Shown piece by piece: positions 1-13,501 of a stretch of 13,501 bases of DNA. The stretch comes from a virus. The notes below the pieces were generated by a model, which saw only the letters and a program-made list of their open reading frames with translations, had not been told where the DNA came from and searched no databases. Within the stretch, counting starts at the first letter, position 1. Every line of letters begins with the position of its first letter. Location: the UHGV virus genome UHGV-1805255; one strand, written 5' to 3'. The position numbers and the translations under genes were made by a program.

Positions 1-1
1 C

Positions 2-157
2 CAGCAGAACATCATGAAAATAATGGGTACTGTAAAAGCGGTGCCAGTCGGCATACTCCGTGGATGACATCCCGGCAAGCATGGCACGCCAGTCGGGTCG
101 CCCCATCTCACGCGCCAGTTTCAGGGCAAAACTCAACTCACCGTCGAACGCTTTCCC
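2..157 (-). CDS. T: Tail assembly chaperone GT, T-frame extension reached by -1 frameshift from G (partial; continues past window start)
   Basis: Hand translation of the -1 frame downstream of the slippery site gives ...AFDGELSFALKLARRWGRPDWRAMLAGMSSTEYADWHRFYSTHYFHDVLL, open to position 2. This matches the lambda gpT segment as I recall it. Not in the ORF track because it has no start codon of its own. Confidence 0.8.
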
Positions 158-555
158 GCAGAAACAGGCTCTGCAGGCCCGGCGTCCTCTGCCTGTTCAG
201 GAGCATCATTCACCACAAACTCATACATACCGGACAGCCGGTACACCACGTTTTCAGCATGAGAAATTGCCTCCGTGGGCCAGGTGGTAAGCACTTCCTG
301 CTCAATCTGTTTAACGGCTTCATTCATGGAAGGCAGCTTTGTCTTCTGCGGATGGTTATGCCACAGGGACATCGCCACCACAAAAGCGCCGGTTCTGATG
401 GCGTCTTCCACAGTAAACTTCCGGTTGCTGTCTGACTCCGCCTGTTCTGCCTGTCGTTTCATCAGGGCGAGATGCTCAATACGCTGCAGGGCTGACAGTT
501 CAGAAAGCGTGACGGTCACACCGTTATGTTCAAATGATTCGGTTTTCAGGAACAT
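133..555 (-). CDS. G: Tail assembly chaperone G
   Basis: 140-aa ORF (MFLKTESFEHNGVTVTLSEL...SAGKRSTVS) near-identical to lambda gpG. ATG at 555, TGA stop at 133-135. Confidence 0.95.
   Translation of the reverse strand: MFLKTESFEHNGVTVTLSELSALQRIEHLALMKRQAEQAESDSNRKFTVEDAIRTGAFVVAMSLWHNHPQKTKLPSMNEAVKQIEQEVLTTWPTEAISHAENVVYRLSGMYEFVVNDAPEQAEDAGPAEPVSAGKRSTVS
151..157 (-). other. Programmed -1 ribosomal frameshift slippery heptamer G GGA AAG (G to GT)
   Basis: Plus strand 151-157 is ctttccc, so the minus strand reads GGGAAAG in the G frame as G-GGA-AAG, 6 codons before the G stop. The -1 frame stays open beyond this point. Confidence 0.85.
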
Positions 556-570
556 CGCTGACTCTCCGGA

Positions 571-1311
571 TTAACTGCCGGTGACGGTGATTTCTGCAAC
601 CGCAGCAAGTTCACCATTACCGGATACAACCGGAATGTTGACCTTGCCTGCAGCAACGCCGTTCACGGTGATGGTCATACCACTGACCGACACGGTGGCT
701 TTTGTTTTATCCGCAGACACCGCACGGAAGCTCTTGTCGGTTGCGCCCTCCGGCTGGAATGCCACGGTCAGCGTGATGCTCCGCCCTTTCACCACCGAAG
801 TGCTGGCAGGCGTCACGGTCATGCCGGTTGCCGCTGTTACCGTGCTGCGATCTTCTGCCATCGACGGACGTCCCACGTTGGTGACTTTCACCGTGCGGGT
901 GATCACTTCCTTCGCCGTCACCGCCTTACCGATACTGCTGACCCAGCCGCGGAACACATCGACCGTGCCGTTCGGGAAGCGGATTTTATAGGCACGGGTA
1001 TCCCCTTTATTAAACCACGCCAGCAGCGCCTGCTGCCCCTGCTCTCCGGGCATCCACGCCAGCGTGAAGATGGTATCTCCGGCAGATTTCTGCCCCTGCC
1101 CGGTCGCAGTCCAGTCCGCATTTTCATCATCGAGATAGCTGTCGTCATAGGACTCAGCGGTCAGTTCGCCGGGCGTCAGGTCTTTAACCTTTGCCAGACG
1201 CGACCAGTCATTGTCTGAAAGCGGGTTTGCATAAGGGTCGCCGCTCCCGTTATAAACCCACAGTGTGGTCCCGGCCCCTTTCACCGGTGCCAGAGGATTT
1301 GGTGTTGGCAT
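571..1311 (-). CDS. V: Major tail tube protein V with C-terminal Ig-like domain
   Basis: ORF 571..1341 matches lambda gpV from the internal ATG at 1311 ([20 protein letters not shown]...). A GAGGA RBS precedes that ATG. 246 aa, as in lambda. Confidence 0.95.
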
Positions 1312-1318
1312 ATCGTCC

Positions 1319-1714
1319 TCACATTTCATAGGTAATGACATAAGTCAGATCGGCTGAACTCCACAGGCCCGCATCATCGTCGCGCCGGTAGTCATAGCCG
1401 CTGGCCACCATACTGGTGATCAAATCTGACAGTGCCGGGATATCACTCATCACCGGATAAATCCGGGACTCCATCCACGCATCCAGCTCTGAATCCGGCA
1501 CCTGAGCAGGCAGGAAAACTTCAATATGCAGCTCTGCCTGCCAGGTATCGCTGTCCAGCTCTTCGCCCGTGTATTCAGCGCCAGTGAGATAAACGGCAAT
1601 TGCCGGAAAATCCGCCTCATCAAAAACAGCGGGGCGACCATCAAAAAGCGTCGCCCCGGTGTCATGCTTCTCCAGTGCATCCAGTACGGCTGCACGGAGT
1701 TCAGTATGTTTCAT
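1319..1714 (-). CDS. U: Tail terminator protein U
   Basis: 131-aa ORF ([18 protein letters not shown]...) matching lambda gpU. Its ATG overlaps the Z stop in an ATGA arrangement. Confidence 0.95.
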
Positions 1715-2286
1715 CGCTTTATCACAATCCTCAGTTGTTGTTTCAGCGCATAGCTCAGTTCTTTTGGCAGACGTTCTCGCCGGATACGGTTAACGTTCTC
1801 ATCAAAAGCCTGTTTCAGTGGGACCGCCATCGGAATTTTCACCACCTGAATGGGAAGACGATTACGCTTTTTCCTTCCCTTATCGTCAGTGCCCTTCGCA
1901 TACCGTGCTTCTGGCAGACGTTGCATAACATGCCAGCGTCCATTATTTAATCGCTGGATGAATGCCCGCTGATAACGATGCTGACCGGCTTTGAGTATGC
2001 TGTTCGGGCGATGACCAAGCATCCTGATCCCCAGCTTAATAGCAGGGAGATCACCTCGGTTAACGATAATTTTTGCATTCGGATTTCTGACCGTAGCTCG
2101 TTTCAGTCTGGATCGCTCTTTAACCAGTTTTCTCGGCACCCGGGTTTCACGGGCGACCTGAGACGAAGACTGATTAATCGCCGTTGCGGCCACGCGGTTA
2201 ATGGCCATTGCTGACGCACTAGGCACCGCCGTTTTGCTGATACGGCTGAGGTTTTCAACGGCCTGCTCAAGACCTTTTATGGCCAT
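1711..2286 (-). CDS. Z: Tail completion / minor tail protein Z
   Basis: 191-aa ORF (MAIKGLEQAVENLSRISKTAVP...LRIVIKR) with N- and C-terminal regions matching lambda gpZ as I recall it. A GGGGGG RBS precedes ATG 2286. Confidence 0.9.
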   Translation of the reverse strand: MAIKGLEQAVENLSRISKTAVPSASAMAINRVAATAINQSSSQVARETRVPRKLVKERSRLKRATVRNPNAKIIVNRGDLPAIKLGIRMLGHRPNSILKAGQHRYQRAFIQRLNNGRWHVMQRLPEARYAKGTDDKGRKKRNRLPIQVVKIPMAVPLKQAFDENVNRIRRERLPKELSYALKQQLRIVIKR

Positions 2287-2297
2287 ACACCCCCCTT

Positions 2298-2651
2298 TCA
2301 GCGACGACGGTTAACGGCAGGCGGTACGCCCCGTCCAAGCCAGAGATGACAGCTTCCGCCATCATCCGGCGTAACCCGATCTACCCAGAAGTTTTCCTCA
2401 CCGATGGTCAGCGTGTCTCCGCGCCGCAGCTGCCGCACATCATCAGTCCGGACAAACAGGGACGGGCTGGAGCCTTCAACGCGCACGCCCTGTCCGGCAT
2501 AGCTGATATTTTCAGGGTCATCAAAAACACCACGTATCACAGCACCGGACTGCTCACCGGATGTCATGGTGGCTGACGTTCCCATGTACCCGCGTATCGT
2601 TTCATCGGCGCGGGCAATAGCAGCATCGAACAGGTTATCGAAATCAGCCAC
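2298..2651 (-). CDS. FII: Head-tail joining protein FII
   Basis: 117-aa ORF (MADFDNLFDAAIARADETIRGY...) matching lambda gpFII. Start is GTG at 2651, preceded by a GGGAGG RBS at about 5 nt. Confidence 0.93.
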   Translation of the reverse strand: MADFDNLFDAAIARADETIRGYMGTSATMTSGEQSGAVIRGVFDDPENISYAGQGVRVEGSSPSLFVRTDDVRQLRRGDTLTIGEENFWVDRVTPDDGGSCHLWLGRGVPPAVNRRR

Positions 2652-2662
2652 AGCGCCTCCCG

Positions 2663-3049
2663 TTATTGCATTCTGGCCAGGCCACGCTCTGTCATTTCAG
2701 CTGCCACACCGGCAGAGACACGAAACGCCGTTCCCGGCAGCACAAATGCCACAGGTTCATCCCGCGTGGCGTGAAGTGCATCAGTATGCAGCGTCACCAG
2801 TGCCACAACCGTGACCAGATCAGCCGTATCAGTCACGGTATCCGGCTGCGCTGATACCACCTCATTTTCATGTCCGGTCAGCGCATTTTCCGGGCTGATA
2901 GGGGTATCCTGATCGGCAGTGTCATCAAGCTCCTCTTCCAGCTCTGCCACACGGAGCGCCAGTTCTTCTTTCGTTCCCGTCAAACTGACATCGCGGTTCA
3001 GTTGCTCACCCAGCTCCTGAAGACGGGCAATCAGTTCATCTTTCGTCAT
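2663..3049 (-). CDS. FI: Head assembly / DNA packaging accessory protein FI
   Basis: ORF 2663..3088 matches lambda gpFI from the internal ATG at 3049 (MTKDELIARLQELGEQLNRDVSLTGTKEELALRVAEL...). A GGAGGAG RBS lies immediately upstream. The upstream part of the track ORF overlaps an RNA hairpin and is not coding. Confidence 0.92.
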   Translation of the reverse strand: MTKDELIARLQELGEQLNRDVSLTGTKEELALRVAELEEELDDTADQDTPISPENALTGHENEVVSAQPDTVTDTADLVTVVALVTLHTDALHATRDEPVAFVLPGTAFRVSAGVAAEMTERGLARMQ

Positions 3050-3070
3050 GGACTCCTCCACAGAGAAACA

Positions 3071-3088
3071 ATGGCCCCGAAGGGCCAT
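3071..3088 (-). other. Stable RNA stem-loop with cUUCGg tetraloop immediately after the E stop codon
   Basis: Plus strand atggccc-cgaa-gggccat has perfect 7-bp arms. On the mRNA this is AUGGCCC-UUCG-GGGCCAU, 2 nt after the E UAA and upstream of the FI RBS. Confidence 0.7.
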
Positions 3089-3090
3089 GA

Positions 3091-4116
3091 TTACGCCAGT
3101 TGTACAGACACGAACTCATCAGGGTCAGCCAGCAGCATCAGCGGTGCTGACTGAATCATGGTGAACTCACGCGCCGGATCGCCGGATGTCTTCCAGTTTT
3201 TCGGATAACGGGGAGACGCATTAATACCCTCACTCAATGCATCCGCATCCTGAATGCAGCCATAGGTGCGCAGACCGCGTGCATGAGTGTTACCCAGCAC
3301 CATCGTGTTGTCCGGCAGGAAGTTCTTTTTGACGCCGTTTTCCACGTACTGTCCGGAATACACGACGATGGCCACATCGCCATACATTCCCTTATAAGAC
3401 ACCGCTTTGCCCAGGTCTTTCACCGCTGTCTCCAGCTCGGAATGAGAGCCGCGACGGGTATCCAGCTTATCCTTGACGGCCTTGAAGGAACGGAACAGCG
3501 CCCAGCCTTTCGGATCAAACACGATGATATTCACCACACCGCTGGCGTTCAGCGCGTAGGCTTCGATATCGTCGGTCGGGTCATACGTGGACTTGTCACG
3601 CTTGCTCCACGCCGTGCCGCCGGACTGCGTGATGTTGTTGGCCGCACTGCGGCCCATATCCACCTCAACCGGATCGAAGGCTTCACCGGTCATGGTGTAT
3701 TTGCCCTTGAGCACGGCAGAAACTGCCTGCATCTCTTCCACCTGGGCAATGGCCAGCTCTTCGTCACGCATGTTCTGCATGATGATGCGACGGCGACGGT
3801 AAGCCGGGTCCGCCAGATTCTGCGGATCTTCATCCGGCAGGCGACGCAGGGTCATCTGCGGATTCACTTCATGCTTCGGCTTGACATATCCCGGCGTAAA
3901 TTCAGAGGTGGAGCCGCCACGGGAACGGATAACCTCACCGGAAACAATCGGCGAAACGTACAGCGCCATGTTTACCAGTCCCGGAATTTGTGAGAGATAG
4001 ACTTTCTCCGTAGTGAAGGGATAGCTCTCACGGAAAAAGAGACGCAGAAACAGCGGATCAAACTTAAATTTCTGCTCATTTGCCGCCAGCAGCTGGGCGG
4101 TTGTGTACATCGACAT
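3091..4116 (-). CDS. E: Major capsid protein E
   Basis: ORF 3091..4143 matches lambda gpE (341 aa) from the ATG at 4116 (MSMYTTAQLLAANEQKFKFDPLFLRLFFRESYPFTTEK...). TAA stop at 3091-3093. Confidence 0.97.
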   Translation of the reverse strand: MSMYTTAQLLAANEQKFKFDPLFLRLFFRESYPFTTEKVYLSQIPGLVNMALYVSPIVSGEVIRSRGGSTSEFTPGYVKPKHEVNPQMTLRRLPDEDPQNLADPAYRRRRIIMQNMRDEELAIAQVEEMQAVSAVLKGKYTMTGEAFDPVEVDMGRSAANNITQSGGTAWSKRDKSTYDPTDDIEAYALNASGVVNIIVFDPKGWALFRSFKAVKDKLDTRRGSHSELETAVKDLGKAVSYKGMYGDVAIVVYSGQYVENGVKKNFLPDNTMVLGNTHARGLRTYGCIQDADALSEGINASPRYPKNWKTSGDPAREFTMIQSAPLMLLADPDEFVSVQLA

Positions 4117-4125
4117 AAAAAAATC

Positions 4126-4154
4126 CCGTAAAAAAAGCCGCACAGGCGGCCTTT
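4126..4154 (-). terminator. Terminator-like GC hairpin plus U-tract between D and E (possible attenuator or mRNA stability element inside the late operon)
   Basis: The mRNA reads AAAGGCCGC-CUGU-GCGGCUUUU (9-bp stem with one G-U pair) followed by UUUACGGGAUUUUUUU directly before the E AUG. Read from sequence; function is inferred. Confidence 0.5.
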
Positions 4155-4171
4155 AGTGATGAAGGGTAAGC

Positions 4172-4504
4172 TTAAACGATGCTGATTGCCGTTCCGGCAA
4201 ACGCGGTCCGTTTTTTCGTCTCGTCGCTGGCAGCCTCCGGCCAGAGCACATCCTCATAACGGAACGTGCCGGACTTGTAGAACGTCAGCGTGGTGCTGGT
4301 CTGGTCAGCAGCAACCGCCAGAATGCCAACGGCAGCACCGTCGGTGGTGCCATCCCACGCAACCAGCTTACGGGTGGAGGTGTCCAGCATCAGCGGGGTC
4401 ATTGCAGGCGCTTTCGCACTCAATCCGCCGGGCGCGGTTGCCGTATGTGCCGGGTCACTGTTGCCCAGCGGCTGGTAATGGGTAAAGGTTTCTTTGCTCG
4501 TCAT
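4172..4504 (-). CDS. D: Head decoration protein D
   Basis: ORF 4172..4510 matches lambda gpD (110 aa) from the ATG at 4504 ([41 protein letters not shown]...). An AAGGGA RBS lies upstream. Confidence 0.95.
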
Positions 4505-4513
4505 AAACATCCC

Positions 4514-5119
4514 TTACACTGGTGTGTTCAGCAAATCGTTAACGGCATCAGATGCCGGGTTACCTGCAGCCAGCGGTGCCGGTGCCCCCTGCATCAGACG
4601 ATCCAGCGCAGTGTCACTGCGCGCCTGTGCACTCTGTGGTGCAACTGCCAGAATGCGGCGGGCCGTTTCCACGGTCATACCGGGGGTTTCGGCCAGCACG
4701 CGAGCCTGTTCTTCGCGTCCGTGAGCCTCCTCACAGTTGAGGATCCCCATAATGCGGCTGTTTTCTGCCGCAACCGCAGCGGTGATCTGCGCGTTCACGT
4801 CCGGCTGCGCCGCGCTGGCGTTTTCGCCCTCCGTCGCTGGCACCACGTCAGTAACGTCAGCCTGCGAAGCAGTGGCTGAAACAGTTGTTGATTGAGTCTC
4901 TTTGGTCATTCGCCCTCCTGAGAGACGGGATTTACGTGCATCCAGTGCATCACGCATAACGGTGATCGCATCGGTGCTGTTGACAAGTTCATCAGCCAGT
5001 CCGGCATCAATGGCCTCCTGACCGCTGTACACTGCAGCCTCGGTATCCAGCACAGCCTGCACGGACAGGCCGGTATATGCCGACACCTTCTGCGCAAACA
5101 TCCGGCGGGTTGCATCCAT
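4514..5119 (-). CDS. Nu3: Scaffolding protein Nu3 (in-frame internal start within C)
   Basis: In-frame ATG at 5119 (MDATRRMFAQKV...) gives 201 codons sharing the C stop, matching the lambda Nu3 arrangement. The call rests on lambda precedent. Confidence 0.75.
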   Translation of the reverse strand: MDATRRMFAQKVSAYTGLSVQAVLDTEAAVYSGQEAIDAGLADELVNSTDAITVMRDALDARKSRLSGGRMTKETQSTTVSATASQADVTDVVPATEGENASAAQPDVNAQITAAVAAENSRIMGILNCEEAHGREEQARVLAETPGMTVETARRILAVAPQSAQARSDTALDRLMQGAPAPLAAGNPASDAVNDLLNTPV

Positions 5120-5813
5120 CCGGGACTGCAGTGTCTCCCGGACGTCATCCGGAAGATGGCTGTAGGGATTGCCATCCACCTTATGGCTGCCGCTGTAAAT
5201 CAGCGTGATTTCCACGCCCTGTTTCTCCAGCGCAGCACCGTAATTACTGTGAGCCATCATGACGCCGATGGAGCCTGTCCGGGCGGTCTGCGTGACCAGA
5301 CGCCGGGAAGCGGCACTGGCAAGCAGCTGACCTGCACTGCAGTTCATGTCGTTGGCCAGCGCCCATACCGGTTTTATGTCACGCACACGGGCGATGATGT
5401 CAGCGCAGTCAAATGCCCCCGCCACCATCCCGCCGGGCGTGTCCATATCGAGCAGAATGCCGTCCACCATCGGATCGCTGGCAGCCTGTTGCAGACGGGC
5501 GATAATGCCGTTGTAACCGGTCATCCCCGAGTACGGCTTCAGCGCCCGCGTCCGGCTGACCAGCGTGCCGGAAACCGGCAGCACGGCGATGCCATTCATG
5601 ACCTGATAACTGCGGGCCTGTCGTGGTCCGTTATCATCACCGGATAACGCCAGCGTCGCGGGTGCCTCCGGGGCAGTCAGGCTGTCACCGGACACCGCAT
5701 CTGTCAGGCGGCTGATCCCAAGCTGGCCTGCAAGCGCACAAAAGAAAACCCGCGCATAGGCGGGTTCAAGCATCAGCGGCTCATTAAAGGCCATGCTGGC
5801 AATATGCGGGAGA

Positions 5814-5833
<20 letters not shown>
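4514..5833 (-). CDS. C: Head maturation protease / scaffold-related protein C
   Basis: ORF 4514..5968 matches lambda gpC (439 aa) from the GTG at 5833 (V/MTAELRNLPHIASMAFNEPLMLEPAYARVFF...). A GGAGGAG RBS lies upstream, and the start overlaps the 3' end of B by 20 nt as in lambda. ClpP/SppA-like peptidase fold is established for this family. Confidence 0.93.
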
Positions 5834-9514
<3,681 letters not shown>

Positions 9515-9540
<26 letters not shown>

Positions 9541-10060
9541 TCAGCAACCCCGGTATCAGTTCATCCAGCGCGGCTGCTTTGTTCATGGCTTTGATAATAT
9601 CCCGTTTCAGGAAATCAATATGCCGGTTATCCAGCTCAGGAAAACGTCGCTGCACCGACAGAGGAATACCGTCGAGAATACTGGATATTTCCCTTGCTAT
9701 ACGCGACAGCACGAAAGTACAGAATGCGGTTTCCACCACTTCAGCCGATTCTTTGGCATTTTTCAGTTCCTGCGCCGTCGCCTGAGCACGAGTCAGGCGA
9801 TGGCGCTCAAATTCAAGTGTTCCGGGGTGAAGATCTGCCTCGCTGGCCAGCCGCAGTTCTTCAACCTCCCGGCGCAGCTTTTCGTTCTCAATTTCAGCAT
9901 CCCTTTCGGCATACCATTTTATGACGGCGGCAGAATCATAAAGCACCTCATTACCCTTACCACCACCCCGCAGAACGGGCATTCCCTGCTCCTGCCAGTT
10001 CTGAATGGTACGGATACTCGCGCCGAAAATGTCAGCCAGCTGCTTTTTGTTGACTTCCAT
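9515..10060 (-). CDS. Nu1: Terminase small subunit Nu1
   Basis: 181-aa ORF (MEVNKKQLADIFGASIRTIQNWQEQGMPVLRGGGKGNEVLYD...) matching lambda gpNu1, with the N-terminal winged-HTH region. ATG at 10060, directly downstream of cosB. Confidence 0.97.
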
Positions 10061-10084
10061 TGTTCATTCCACGGACAAAAACAG

Positions 10085-10199
10085 AGAAAGGAAACGACAG
10101 GGGCCAAAAAGCCCGTTTTCAGCACCTGTCGTTTCCTTTCTTTTCAGGGGGTATTTTAAATAAAAACATTAAGTTACGGCGAAGAAGAACGGAAACGCC
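10085..10199. promoter_or_regulatory. cosB: terminase (Nu1) binding R-elements R1, R2, R3
   Basis: A perfect 17-bp inverted pair, agaaaggaaacgacagg (10085-10101) and cctgtcgtttcctttct (10125-10141), plus a third related element gaacggaaacgcc (10187-10199). These match the lambda CGTTTCC-type R sites between cosN and Nu1. Confidence 0.85.
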
Positions 10200-10237
10200 T
10201 TAAACCGGAAAATTTTCATAAATAGCGAAAACCCGCG

Positions 10238-10249
10238 AGGTCGCCGCCC
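10238..10249. other. cosN: 12-nt cohesive-end sequence (GGGCGGCGACCT on the minus strand)
   Basis: Plus strand aggtcgccgccc at 10238-10249 is the reverse complement of the lambda cohesive end. The 49 nt on the Nu1 side are identical to the lambda left end as I recall it. Confidence 0.9.
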
Positions 10250-10310
10250 CGTAACGGCCCGGATCGCCGGAAAGGACCCGTAAAAATGATAATGGTTATC
10301 ATTTTCAATG

Positions 10311-10498
10311 TAGTCCGGTTTCTTCCACCATCGCACCGGACAGGCGACTATGAGGGGACAACGCCGCGCTCCGTTAACGCGGTAAACCCCGGTGTGTATC
10401 GTTTTTGATTATCCCCGCACACTCGCGCAGAGGAGTCTCCCTGTCGGGCTGCGGTCTCTGTTAATGAGGGAATACAGCGACGATACGGCGCATGATGT
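10311..10498. repeat. Copy 1 of a ~190-bp imperfect direct repeat (cos-proximal copy)
   Basis: By-eye alignment with 12086-12285: ttcttccacc...cagg...atgagggaca...gcggtaaa...ccggtgtg.atcgtttttgattat..ccgcacactcgcgcagaggagt...gtcgggct.cggtc...gttaatg.gg.aatac.gcgacgat. Roughly 85-90% identity over the core. Confidence 0.8.
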
Positions 10499-10524
10499 GT
10501 CAGGCTTGAATACATTTATCCGTT

Positions 10525-10550
10525 AAAAGGGATATCAGTTAAGTTATCCC
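10525..10550 (-). terminator. Weak terminator-like hairpin 3' of cargo gene B
   Basis: The mRNA reads GGGAUA-ACUUAACUGA-UAUCCC followed by UUUUAACGG. The 6-bp stem is AU-rich and the U-tract short, so this is a weak call. Confidence 0.25.
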
Positions 10551-10607
10551 GTGTAGGGTATAAGCCATTATCAAAGCCACTCAGTAGCGAATGGCTTTTG
10601 TAATGGA

Positions 10608-11057
10608 CTATTTAATTAGTGATGCTGCGTATTCGATTAGATATAACTTAGGTGCCAACCAGATTTTTAACCATGTCATATTGGTTACTACAGCAATAAT
10701 AAAACTTACCCACAGAACAAAAACTGCTGCTAATGGTAAGATAAGAAAACTAATCTCACCGTTACTTTCCCAAATCATGGTCGGTTTGTATTTAGGCTTC
10801 CCTTTTTCCCATGACCATCCTTCATTATCGAACTTACCAATTTCAACTTTTTGGTACTGTTTCTTCATAAACCAAATAACCAGCGGGATTGTTGAAATGG
10901 CTATTAATGTTTTAATCAGGCTATCAACCATATTCCATACCAGCAACTGATGAACAACATCCGGAATCTGAGCCTGACTGAATGCAATGGCGGAATCAAT
11001 TCCATCGCTGGCCTTCTTCAATAAATCAACAAGAATTTTATTTGCTTCTTCTTGCAT
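10608..11057 (-). CDS. Cargo gene B: small (149 aa) predicted two-pass membrane protein, function unknown
   Basis: ATG at 11057 preceded by AGGA at about 7 nt; the track ORF begins upstream at a TTG. Two hydrophobic segments (SLIKTLIAISTIPLVIWFM and ISFLILPLAAVFVLWVSFIIAVVT) flank a Lys-rich loop. About 37% GC in a sampled stretch. No homolog recognised. Confidence 0.7.
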   Translation of the reverse strand: MQEEANKILVDLLKKASDGIDSAIAFSQAQIPDVVHQLLVWNMVDSLIKTLIAISTIPLVIWFMKKQYQKVEIGKFDNEGWSWEKGKPKYKPTMIWESNGEISFLILPLAAVFVLWVSFIIAVVTNMTWLKIWLAPKLYLIEYAASLIK

Positions 11058-11181
11058 GTTTATATCCTGTAAGTTGTAAGCCTGTTCGAGAAAAATAAAC
11101 AACTACGAGAGACAGAAAAAAATATCTCAGGCTCTCTTTCTATAAGCTTTTAGTTGAGGATGTTCTGCAAAACAAAACTGG

Positions 11182-12042
11182 TTAGTTATGTAACTGCTTC
11201 CGGAATACAACAGCCGACGAGCTACAACGTAAAATTCGTTTGATTGTGGCAGTTGAGGAAACAGACTTGCATTTCTCAACATCATCAATAATGACCACAT
11301 CCGGTACAGGAATGACGCGGGTATGCAATGTTTTTGCACTAATAACATCACAGCCATTCAGTGGTCGAATATCTGCATCTTCAGGCACTACCAGAAGCAC
11401 ACGTTTTTCCGGTGCAGAAAAGCCAGCAGCAAGAGTGCGTGACAATAAAGTCATTCCGCTGCGTGGCTTCATACAAATTTCAGAAATATGATTCTTTTCG
11501 TCCAAATGATGCTGGACATCATTTTTATCATCACTCAACAACTCTGCTGTTAATACAATCCCTGCTGTCTCAGATTTCCAGGAAATGCTGATATCCTGAT
11601 CATCTGCATCAACATCATATTTCATCGAGTAAGGACTAAAGCTACGTCCAACGAACGCATCATTTACCAGTACACGCCCACCCTGTCTGACCTGAAAGTC
11701 AACGCGCCCGGAAAGCTGATTTGCTGTTACAAGCAATGCCTTTTTTCTTTTTGTTTTATTGCTCATTGCCACCAACTGTTCAGCCATCTCTCTTGTCACA
11801 CTACCAGAAACTCTTCCTTGCATTTTCACAGAAAATTTTCTGGATGTAGTAGCATCGACATTAAAAAATCTGGATGTAATCAGGCAGTTATTAACAATTG
11901 GCATCAGCTCACTTACGATTGTAAAAAATTCCCGGTAAAGCTCATTTTGCTTTTCAACACACAGCTTTCCACAATCGTCCAGCTTACGCTCAAGAGCACT
12001 TAACCTTTCCATTATTGAATTAATTTTTTGCAACTCTTTCAT
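11182..12042 (-). CDS. Cargo gene A: 286-aa protein of unknown function, predicted soluble, N-terminal coiled-coil-like segment
   Basis: ATG at 12042 preceded by AGGAGG at 5 nt (MKELQKINSIMERLSALERKLDD...). The track ORF extends to a TTG at 12303 through the GC-rich repeat, with an R/C/S/P-rich translation that I do not consider coding. About 38% GC in sampled stretches. TAA stop at 11182. Confidence 0.75.
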   Translation of the reverse strand: MKELQKINSIMERLSALERKLDDCGKLCVEKQNELYREFFTIVSELMPIVNNCLITSRFFNVDATTSRKFSVKMQGRVSGSVTREMAEQLVAMSNKTKRKKALLVTANQLSGRVDFQVRQGGRVLVNDAFVGRSFSPYSMKYDVDADDQDISISWKSETAGIVLTAELLSDDKNDVQHHLDEKNHISEICMKPRSGMTLLSRTLAAGFSAPEKRVLLVVPEDADIRPLNGCDVISAKTLHTRVIPVPDVVIIDDVEKCKSVSSTATIKRILRCSSSAVVFRKQLHN

Positions 12043-12065
12043 CAAAACCTCCTGACAAAGATACC

Positions 12066-12083
12066 GTGCGACCACGGTCGCAC
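12066..12083. promoter_or_regulatory. Palindrome gtgcgacc-ac-ggtcgcac (copy 1), candidate operator / protein-binding site upstream of cargo gene A
   Basis: Perfect 8-bp inverted arms around a 2-bp centre, 24-41 bp upstream of the gene A ATG and directly abutting repeat copy 2. Confidence 0.5.
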
Positions 12084-12085
12084 GC

Positions 12086-12285
12086 TCCTGAATACATGCC
12101 CTGTTTCTTCCACCCTCGCACAGGACTGGCGAGCATGAGGGACAAACCCGCGAATCATTAGTGCGGTAAAAACCCGGTGTGCATCGTTTTTGATTATTTC
12201 CGCACACTCGCGCAGAGGAGTTCCCCGTCGGGCTACGGTCATGGTTAATGCGGAAATACGGCGACGATGCAGCGCGGTATTTAAT
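12086..12285. repeat. Copy 2 of the ~190-bp imperfect direct repeat (upstream of the cargo cassette)
   Basis: Aligns with 10311-10498 (see copy 1). It is bracketed on both sides by the 16-18-bp palindrome. Confidence 0.8.
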
Positions 12286-12302
12286 GTGCGACCACGGTCG
12301 CA
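12286..12302. promoter_or_regulatory. Palindrome tgcgacc-ac-ggtcgca (copy 2)
   Basis: Same core as 12066-12083 with 7-bp perfect arms. Centre-to-centre spacing is 220 bp, about 21 helical turns. Confidence 0.5.
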
Positions 12303-12322
12303 AACGAGAAACAAAGAGATTT

Positions 12323-12634
12323 TTATGCTACAGAGGAACAAGCTGGCGGGTAATTCAGCGTAGTGAATACCGGCATCTCCATCTTGTATGCGTAATGATA
12401 CTCAGCAGTTGCTCCAGCAGACGCTTTCCAGCCAGGAAGCATCAAAATAGCATCAGCACAACGAAGCATTGCAAAGCAAATATCCATGTATTCACGTTGT
12501 GTCAAACCATTAGGCAAAGTGGCTGGATTCAAGACAGAGTGACCATGTCGTGACAAACGATCTGCCTCTTTATTAAAGGCGTCACGATTAAAGTTCTCAT
12601 ATCCCGTCATTGGCCCGGCAATATAAATTTTCAT
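12323..12634 (-). CDS. DUF4406 / nucleoside 2-deoxyribosyltransferase-like small protein
   Basis: 103-aa ORF with ATG at 12634 (MKIYIAGPMTGYENFNRDAF...LMLPGWKASAGATAEYHYAYKMEMPVF). The N-terminal IYIAGPxTG and the LPGW-x-S-x-GA-x-x-E motifs fit my recollection of the DUF4406 family. Family assignment is from memory. Confidence 0.6.
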   Translation of the reverse strand: MKIYIAGPMTGYENFNRDAFNKEADRLSRHGHSVLNPATLPNGLTQREYMDICFAMLRCADAILMLPGWKASAGATAEYHYAYKMEMPVFTTLNYPPACSSVA

Positions 12635-12675
12635 TCACTATCCAACAAATTGAGCTCGTTTTTGATACAGAGGGA

Positions 12676-13113
12676 TTAATTCAGGCATTGCGTCTTGATG
12701 TATTCCTGCAAGTAGTTAACCTGCGCAGTTATCCTGTCGATCCCACTTCGGAGACGGTAATAATTGAGTTCAGCATCTGCTGTAAGTCTTGGGCTTTCTC
12801 CATCGCCCATGCTGCTGGCTCCGGTCGTTGACTTTGCACAGGTGGCGGCGACTTGCAGGCGCTTACGCCCAGCAGAAACATCAGCACGGAGGCTTTCGAT
12901 AGTCGCGTTAGCATCAGCAAGCTCCTTTGTATATCTGGCATCGAGTTCTGCTACGTCACGTTGACGCTTCTGCATATCAGCGATTGTGGATGTGGCTTTA
13001 TCGCGCTGCTCTTTGTAGGAGATGGCGTTATCACGGTAATGATTAACCGCCCATGACAGGCAGACGATGATGCAGATAACCAGAGCGGAGATAATCGCGG
13101 TTAACCGACTCAT
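12676..13113 (-). CDS. Rz: i-spanin Rz (inner-membrane spanin subunit)
   Basis: ORF 12676..13149 matches lambda-type Rz from the ATG at 13113 ([34 protein letters not shown]...). N-terminal TM segment, coiled-coil-rich periplasmic part, and an embedded Rz1 frame. Confidence 0.9.
12729..12914 (-). CDS. Rz1: o-spanin Rz1 (outer-membrane lipoprotein, embedded in Rz in +1 frame)
   Basis: Embedded ORF with ATG at 12914: [36 protein letters not shown]... Signal peptide with lipobox-like VSAC followed by a Pro-rich segment, as in lambda Rz1. An alternative upstream ATG at 12941 is possible. Confidence 0.75.
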
Positions 13114-13205
13114 GACATCAACACCCCAACGGCCAGAAACCACGGCCACGCATCGTTGCCATTAAATGCGAGCAACGCTGCCATGAAAAAGAAAATCATG
13201 CTCAT
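13110..13205 (-). CDS. Putative 31-aa hydrophobic micro-protein between R and Rz
   Basis: Hand translation gives [31 protein letters not shown]. Its ATG overlaps the R stop (ATGA) and its TGA overlaps the Rz ATG (ATGA). No RBS is evident, and it is below the size cutoff of the ORF track. Confidence 0.35.
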
Positions 13206-13501
13206 TGCTGCCCCCACAAACAGACTTCACGCTCAATCTCACGACGAGTCATCAGGCCTTTCCATTGCTTACCGCCAGCAGATATCCAGCGACGTAGCTG
13301 ATCACATGCGCCTTTGATATCGCCCTGGTTTATTTTGCGAAGAAGCGTCGATGTTCTGAAATTACCAGCGCCCACGTTGTAAACGAACGAGTAAAGAGCG
13401 CCGCGCGTTGTTTCCGGGGCACTGTTGCAAAGTTAGCGATGAGGCAGCCTTTTGTCTTATTCAAAGGCCTTACATTTCAAAAACTCTGCTTACCAGGCGC
13501 A
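13202..13501 (-). CDS. R: Phage-21-type (T4-lysozyme-like, GH24) endolysin R, C-terminal 99 codons; 5' end lies beyond the window
   Basis: Hand translation of the minus strand gives ...[71 protein letters not shown], matching the C-terminus of the phage 21 R / RrrD-type lysozyme as I recall it. TGA stop at 13202-13204. Not in the ORF track because it has no start in the window. Confidence 0.85.

Follow-up and report, generated by a model that had tools for sequence, protein, structure and literature searches.

The phage 21/lambda-type lysis cassette, usually made up of a holin, an endolysin and Rz/Rz1, is among the best-studied gene sets in virology, and the viral genome UHGV-1805255 raises the question of whether such a cassette can hold a further gene. 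The stretch of this genome analyzed here, 13,501 nt in length (the window), carries on its minus strand an open reading frame (ORF) of 31 codons plus stop (13110–13205) between the endolysin gene R and the i-spanin gene Rz. We investigated whether this micro-ORF encodes a protein under selection, to which family such a protein might belong, and what it could do. The feature was assessed from the sequence itself, the ratio of non-synonymous to synonymous substitution (dN/dS), frame integrity, and an AlphaFold model. Based on comparison of related loci, we consider it almost certain that the micro-ORF is a real, selected protein-coding gene, and the most fitting description is that of an accessory gene in the lysis operon that encodes an uncharacterised micro-protein.

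Coding status of the micro-ORF between R and Rz

The hydrophobic 31-codon frame with ATGA overlaps at both ends was present as the initial annotation had described it. Its start ATG (13205–13203) lies within an ATGA common to the R stop TGA (13204–13202), and its stop TGA (13112–13110) lies within an ATGA common to the Rz start ATG (13113–13111). The non-coding gap from the R stop to the Rz ATG measured 88 nt and not 92 nt as first given; the value of 92 nt corresponds to the length by which cassettes with and without the micro-ORF differ. The double overlap had also been regarded as unlikely to arise by chance. Shuffling of the 90 inner nucleotides left the frame open in 27% of cases, and a factor of 1/3 for the ATGA register gave a chance of ~9% for an open, in-register frame between both ATGAs. 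With an expectation this high, the coupling argument from a single sequence is weak, and the case rests on comparative data.

Gene callers seldom call ORFs so small, and degenerate DNA-pattern scans were therefore used in place of protein searches, which were sparse (four proteins with a concatenated query and two from a representative set of 1.84 billion). A 20-mer scan, a degenerate scan and a genome scan together provided 79 usable loci with 29 distinct ORF DNAs for the selection tests. Twenty-eight of the 29 variants were frame-intact; 27 ran from ATG to TGA, one had a GTG start, and one had its stop changed to TGG. Frameshifts or stops in the micro-ORF of relatives that keep R and Rz had been named as the observation that would speak against a gene, and the 20-mer scan showed no indels inside the micro-ORF at any of 81 IMG/VR loci. 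Altogether, an intact frame was retained at about 90 homologous loci. Variable columns fell at codon positions 1, 2 and 3 in the proportion 10/4/24. For the whole ORF, dN/dS was 0.12, compared to 2.4 and 8.8 in the other two frames. Codons 2–18 lie outside every search pattern and thus provide an estimate free of ascertainment bias; here dN/dS was 0.078, with a proportion of synonymous differences (pS) of 0.60, and the other frames gave 1.8 and 25.6. The comparison of synonymous and non-synonymous variation across related cassettes that had been proposed as a check therefore points to purifying selection, and the proposal of a genuine small-peptide gene is supported by these values together with frame integrity, a conserved Shine–Dalgarno (SD) site and a sister subfamily in the same slot.

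The initial annotation saw no obvious ribosome-binding site. We identified an SD-like GGGGG 5 nt upstream of the micro-ORF ATG (13211–13215, minus strand), for which pairing with the 3′ end of the 16S rRNA is predicted at −8.4 kcal/mol; the local background is −2.2 ± 2.5 kcal/mol. Across 18 of 18 distinct upstream contexts, the anti-SD energy of this site was −5.4 to −8.4 kcal/mol, and start codon and SD-like site were retained even behind other lysozyme lineages or an inserted HNH endonuclease. In cassettes that do not carry the micro-ORF, the same SD element serves Rz. A second SD-like element, GGGG, lies inside the micro-ORF at codons 27–28 (13124–13127, minus strand; GGR GTR in homologs), ~10 nt upstream of the Rz ATG, and each of its 13 distinct variants gave an anti-SD energy between −5.9 and −9.7 kcal/mol. 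The micro-ORF thus has an ATGA at both ends and an SD of its own, as a translationally coupled operon gene would, with the coupling being predicted.

A frame that opened by chance in a spacer or in a recombination scar would be consistent with the ~9% expectation, with the empty gap left by RefSeq/PGAP in E. coli genomes, where the micro-ORF is unannotated, and with the lack of a Pfam or NCBIfam model. The comparative data nevertheless appear to refute it effectively: substitutions follow a period of three, dN/dS is 0.08–0.12 compared to >1.8 in the other frames, none of the 81 loci from the 20-mer scan has an indel, start and SD are conserved, and homologs down to ~25% identity keep the motif G-x-D-x-W-x-W. 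A search for an overlapping element on the other strand as the source of the alignment signal found none, and we regard a chance frame as extremely improbable. The same low probability applies to the micro-ORF being part of a neighbour, either as a C-terminal extension of R through a −1 frameshift or as an N-terminal extension of Rz from a GTG at 13149. The micro-ORF frame is indeed −1 relative to R and open a few codons 5′ of its ATG, and the Rz frame is open back to that GTG. However, the junction holds no slippery site of the X XXY YYZ type, and both the ATG/GTG start and the SD persist where an unrelated gene, such as that of the HNH endonuclease, lies upstream. In the case of Rz, the codons upstream of its ATG vary non-conservatively (RWGVDV vs. 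CWSNHV), and dN/dS in the Rz frame exceeds 1.

A third reading concerns the RNA. Third-position diversity falls to ~0–0.07 at codons 18–24 (GAT GCG TGG CCG TGG TTT CTG; 13132–13154, minus strand), compared to ~0.5 on either side, and RNAalifold predicted a hairpin at 13096–13144 (minus strand) in which codons 21–26 pair with the Rz initiation region. Together with the position of the Rz SD inside the micro-ORF, this would fit a cis-acting translational leader, in which translation opens a hairpin that buries the Rz start and the peptide itself is irrelevant. The stability of the hairpin did not exceed that of shuffled sequence (z = −1.17), compensatory changes were absent, and a search of the region for a conserved RNA element found no Rfam match and no promoter. 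In addition, amino-acid conservation extends over the full length of the ORF (dN/dS 0.08) and holds between subfamilies whose synonymous sites are saturated, and family members exist where no Rz follows. We consider the leader improbable, if less so than a chance frame or a neighbour's extension; codon preference and recent recombination are alternative explanations for the dip in synonymous variation.

A wider family of G-x-D-x-W-x-W micro-proteins

Codons 15–22 of the micro-ORF (13140–13163, minus strand) encode N-G-N-D-A-W-P-W, which corresponds to a family signature. When 25 diverse members, the window peptide included, were aligned (alignment A1), G16, D18, W20 and W22 (window numbering) were invariant. 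Searches with tblastn recovered sister peptides with ~40–55% identity in the same slot of other Salmonella and Klebsiella phages. These include gp28 of phage UPF_BP1 (YP_009793811.1; 35 residues, MKYLPSATCMAAAGFIAANGNDGWGWFLFIGVILL), which has 4-nt overlaps with both endolysin and Rz, and an unannotated member in the slot of Klebsiella phage RCIP0114. In SPN3UB and FSL SP-016, an unannotated member lies directly 3′ of an RrrQ-type lysozyme. For this sister subfamily (UPF_BP1 gp28, RCIP0114, SPN3UB), dN/dS was 0.068, with synonymous sites nearly saturated.

A DNA scan for G-[NH]-D-G-W-G-W returned 49 IMG/VR loci, and all 49 were tiny ORFs of one architecture: a short, often basic N-terminus, an Ala/Gly-rich hydrophobic stretch of 13–17 residues that usually contains Cys, the motif, 8–10 hydrophobic residues, and a stop. 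The window peptide shows the general build of the family, which comprises 31–50 residues with a hydrophobic helix, the motif [NST]-G-[NH]-D-[GA]-W-[GP]-W and a hydrophobic C-terminus. The slot 3′ of a SAR (signal-anchor-release) endolysin and overlapping the Rz start is likewise shared by members in UPF_BP1, RCIP0114 and ~25 IMG/VR loci. Members with DGWGW matched phrog_14810, a family with unknown function, at E-values of 1e-5 to 9e-8. No Pfam (E ≤ 10), NCBIfam or PADLOC (E ≤ 10) model was matched, a profile search of the PDB returned no structural relative and only a spurious match to acetylglutamate kinase, and literature searches on the motif and on small ORFs in lysis cassettes found no relevant paper. 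Judged by motif and architecture, the micro-ORF product appears to be a divergent member of a broad, uncharacterised, phrog_14810-like phage family.

The window peptide is strongly hydrophobic, with a grand average of hydropathy (GRAVY) of 1.37 and D18 as its only charged residue. The AlphaFold single-sequence model (predicted local distance difference test score, pLDDT, of 89) placed a helix at residues 2–15, a non-helical G-N-D-A turn at 16–19, and a second helix at 20–30. The two predicted helices, at 14 and 11 residues, are each too short to cross a bilayer alone. The model is most reasonably read as either a hairpin of two helices or one span with a sharp kink, the turn with Asp and Trp being predicted at or in the membrane, and we consider it likely that the product is a membrane helix-turn-helix peptide.

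The 92-nt segment itself is uncommon. Among the 330 phage records that matched the region, the insert was found in only 18 (BTP1, Emek, PS34, SEN22, P6, 2B8 and others), and 60 of 5426 complete E. coli genomes carried it. An intact peptide is encoded in each of three E. coli chromosomes that were selected solely on nucleotide similarity. A scan of species-representative genomes gave only three true matches (Escherichia sp., Kluyvera and Raoultella); the window subfamily is rare and enterobacterial, and little more is to be drawn from a scan of that kind. In cassettes that do not carry the micro-ORF, such as that of Stx phage 1717, R and Rz overlap directly in one ATGA. An ATGAG(C/T) repeat borders the indel, and codons 1–2 of the micro-ORF (ATG AGC) are those of Rz in the ORF-less form. 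The product is annotated as a hypothetical protein in Emek (orf30, YP_006560616.1), P6 and vB_ST415_1NRH. In one NCBI protein of 123 aa (P0002), a frameshift has fused the 3′ part of R to the micro-ORF and the 5′ part of Rz. This was the sole disrupted copy noted, and it would represent either a decayed prophage copy or a mis-assembly.

Gene context and a possible role in lysis

Nearly all loci of the window subfamily have a GH24 SAR endolysin gene upstream; the few exceptions have an HNH endonuclease gene or an unidentified short ORF there. The downstream gene, wherever it could be called by script, is of the Rz type and starts at −1 (at −10 in one locus). At all loci with sufficient sequence upstream, the holin was of the small pinholin type with two transmembrane domains (TMDs), including S21 itself. 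The three enterobacterial subfamilies all sit 3′ of signal-anchored lysozymes, and in the SPN3UB type the micro-ORF still adjoins the endolysin where Rz is non-adjacent. This persistent linkage to the endolysin, together with a place late in the operon, favours a part in pinholin/SAR-endolysin lysis among possible functions, and the association with SAR-type lysozymes and pinholin-like holins likewise favours the lysis-timing modulator suggested as a possibility by the initial annotation, although a lysis-related function is a tentative assignment to which we give a little less than even weight.

Two groups of loci show variations on this arrangement. At one IMG/VR locus (L005) and three similar ones, an HNH/AP2 homing-endonuclease gene (phrog_99) occupies the usual place of the endolysin, and the micro-ORF start and SD are retained. 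In Salmonella phage SPN3UB (L094), two unannotated small membrane ORFs (1480–1596 and 1752–1889) lie between lysozyme and Rz; these are a family member of 36–38 aa and an ORF of 45 aa that has one hydrophobic stretch and abuts the Rz start.

In the explanation we prefer, an optional 92-nt cassette would have been slotted into the ATGA junction of SAR endolysin and Rz in lambdoid and P22-like enterobacterial phages. The micro-ORF would take over the SD and start otherwise used by Rz, and ribosomes would be passed on to Rz via the second ATGA overlap and the internal SD. The peptide would be made late, in step with the lysis proteins, and, as we infer from context, would most likely modulate pinholin/SAR-endolysin lysis from within the cytoplasmic membrane, as an accessory factor that is dispensable. 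It might, for instance, affect whether the weakly hydrophobic helices of the SAR domain or the pinholin are retained or released, and thereby the timing or sharpness of lysis. Taken as a whole, this explanation, a real membrane micro-protein gene whose product is an accessory lysis modulator, has in our judgement an even chance of being correct.

Several observations weigh against this explanation. Most R21-type cassettes function without the micro-ORF, and identical SAR endolysins and S21 pinholins are found with and without it, so that its presence does not co-vary with R, S or Rz. Distant members adjoin other genes, being located after SSB (single-stranded DNA-binding protein), before DNA or RNA ligase, or before an antiterminator, and in Mu-like phages such as SuMu a member lies between a DUF1804 DNA-binding protein and TerL. 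Since these members lie outside lysis cassettes, the family is not intrinsically a lysis function. The window copy is also atypical: codon 5 (13191–13193, minus strand) encodes Phe (TTC), where all other recovered subfamily members except one IMG/VR locus (L041) have Cys (TGC/TGT), and Cys is found at this position in most of the wider family as well. The match of the window peptide to phrog_14810 was weak (E = 0.036), compared to E = 0.0034 for the common Cys5 variant. Finally, the structural model was built from a single sequence only.

The same context can be read as that of a moron-like small membrane protein unrelated to lysis, with a host inner-membrane target or a part in exclusion or takeover, for which the R–Rz junction is simply a permissive, well-expressed site. 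Such a protein would account for the optional, cassette-like insert with its ATGAG(C/T) borders, for the lack of co-variation with lysis genes, and for members outside Enterobacteriaceae that adjoin SSB, an ATP-dependent DNA ligase, an RNA ligase, an antiterminator, or a TerS-like/TerL pair. It is less easily reconciled with the three diverged enterobacterial subfamilies, which all keep their place right after a signal-anchored lysozyme, or with the ~120 loci examined, where a micro-ORF followed an endolysin of another kind in no case, although the N-terminus of lambda Rz is nearly identical. The exclusion variant is disfavoured because a gene of the late operon would be silent in the lysogen. 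We regard the moron-like alternative as a substantial possibility, albeit one well below even weight. Returning to the lysis modulator, a bolder version would make the G-x-D-x-W-x-W micro-proteins an unrecognised class of phage membrane regulators, a fifth lysis gene of pinholin/SAR-endolysin cassettes that tunes the exit of SAR or pinholin helices from the bilayer, possibly through the membrane-embedded Asp and Trp pair; this we consider speculative and rather unlikely.

With a strongly conserved micro-gene nested in it, even this well-studied operon has an uncharacterised component, which so far is known only as a PHROG with unknown function and as a hypothetical protein in a few phage records. 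The gene lends itself to testing, since removal of exactly these 92 nt would restore the junction seen in natural ORF-less cassettes.

State of the cassette in the window and comparison with known systems

The initial annotation placed the micro-ORF nested between the endolysin gene R and Rz. The overlaps on both sides held, although the R of the window is not intact. What remains of it (13202–13417, minus strand) is the 3′ fragment of an R21/RrrD-type SAR endolysin gene, comprising the last 71 codons plus stop, whose translation matches full-length endolysins of 165–167 aa; homology ends at 13417. The SAR domain and the catalytic residues are absent from this fragment. An IS26 end follows on the plus strand (13418–13501), identified by an exact 30-nt match and a 14-bp terminal inverted repeat (TIR), GGCACTGTTGCAAA, at 13418–13431. 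This TIR is the IS26 terminal inverted repeat (PMC8477213), and >5000 plasmid records matched the 13418–13501 stretch. IS26 has taken the 5′ two-thirds of R, and the lysis cassette in the window is therefore defective and unable to lyse cells. Because R is truncated at 13417/13418, coupling of the micro-ORF to R is inoperable in the window, and the practical message for this window is modest, as the cassette has already been inactivated.

The Phe at codon 5 bears on the order of these events. The identical F5 peptide of L041 lies beside an intact 166-residue endolysin, and the change from Cys5 to Phe therefore predates the IS26 event or is independent of it. The backbone of the window (1–13113; terminase, portal, S49 protease and capsid) is ~96% identical to lambda-like E. 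coli phage-plasmids of 46–62 kb, and the closest phage-plasmid relatives do not carry the 92-nt segment.

Downstream of the micro-ORF, Rz (i-spanin; 12676–13113, minus strand) was assigned from the label Rz-like spanin in homologous phages, with its ATG overlapping the micro-ORF stop. Rz1 (o-spanin; 12729–12941, minus strand) was taken from the ORF listing and lies in the +1 frame inside Rz. Its lipobox, LGVSAC, was recognised in the sequence by analogy with lambda Rz1, and its real start is probably an internal Met at about 12914. Directly 3′ of Rz/Rz1, an ORF of 103 aa (12323–12634, minus strand) begins MKIYIAGPMTGYENFNRDAF and presumably resembles DUF4406/nucleoside 2-deoxyribosyltransferase-like proteins.

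Several known kinds of protein were considered for the micro-ORF product and rejected. A spanin does not fit, as the 31 residues hold no periplasmic domain, the Cys5 of homologs is not preceded by a signal peptide, and canonical Rz/Rz1 follow. A component of anti-phage defence was rejected with no PADLOC match at E ≤ 10. An origin from, or mimicry of, the SAR domain and SGNDG junction of R21 received an hhalign probability of 7.7% over 9 columns only. The holin/pinholin assignment was set aside given helices of 14 and 11 residues, D18 as the only charge, a hydrophobic C-terminus, and a separate pinholin-type gene before R in homologous cassettes.

The releasin of phage Mu, gp25 (DUF2730), is a membrane-tethered accessory protein that controls SAR endolysin release (PMC9239132). 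This is the kind of activity proposed for the micro-protein. Mu releasin is larger, with an N-terminal TMD and a cytoplasmic domain, and is required for Mu lysis, whereas the micro-protein lacks a soluble domain and most cassettes do without it; membership in DUF2730 was rejected with no Pfam match at E ≤ 10. The single-gene lysis peptides of single-stranded RNA phages (e.g., the 37-residue LysM) and other bacterial membrane micro-proteins are of similar size, hydrophobic, and bind an inner-membrane protein. Peptides of the LysM type are sole lysis effectors, whereas the micro-ORF accompanies a complete holin–endolysin–spanin set.

S21 68/71, the pinholin/antiholin of phage 21 (class II holins), is encoded upstream of R with a dual-start motif and comprises two full TMDs and a C-terminal tail that is charged. 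The micro-protein resembles S21 as a small inner-membrane protein of the same late lysis operon, and in many family members the first helix is rich in Ala/Gly and weakly hydrophobic, as is a SAR-type TMD1. It differs in being half the size, in having no charged tail, in its position downstream of R, and in showing no sequence similarity.

The closest likeness is found within the micro-protein family. Orf30 of Salmonella phage Emek corresponds to the window micro-ORF in both its 31 residues and its slot. The window peptide shares its hydrophobic helix, the [NST]-G-[NH]-D-[GA]-W-[GP]-W motif and the short hydrophobic C-terminus with Emek orf30, UPF_BP1 gp28, SuMu gp25 and phrog_14810. SuMu gp25 (YP_007002933.1), a hypothetical protein of 37 aa from a Haemophilus phage (L149, 3495–3608), overlaps the terminase start ~1.5 kb downstream of the lysis genes; it precedes the large terminase gene, unlike the lysis-cassette micro-ORF. 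The window subfamily itself is set apart by A-W-P-W in place of G-W-G-W and by the lack of the short basic N-terminus.

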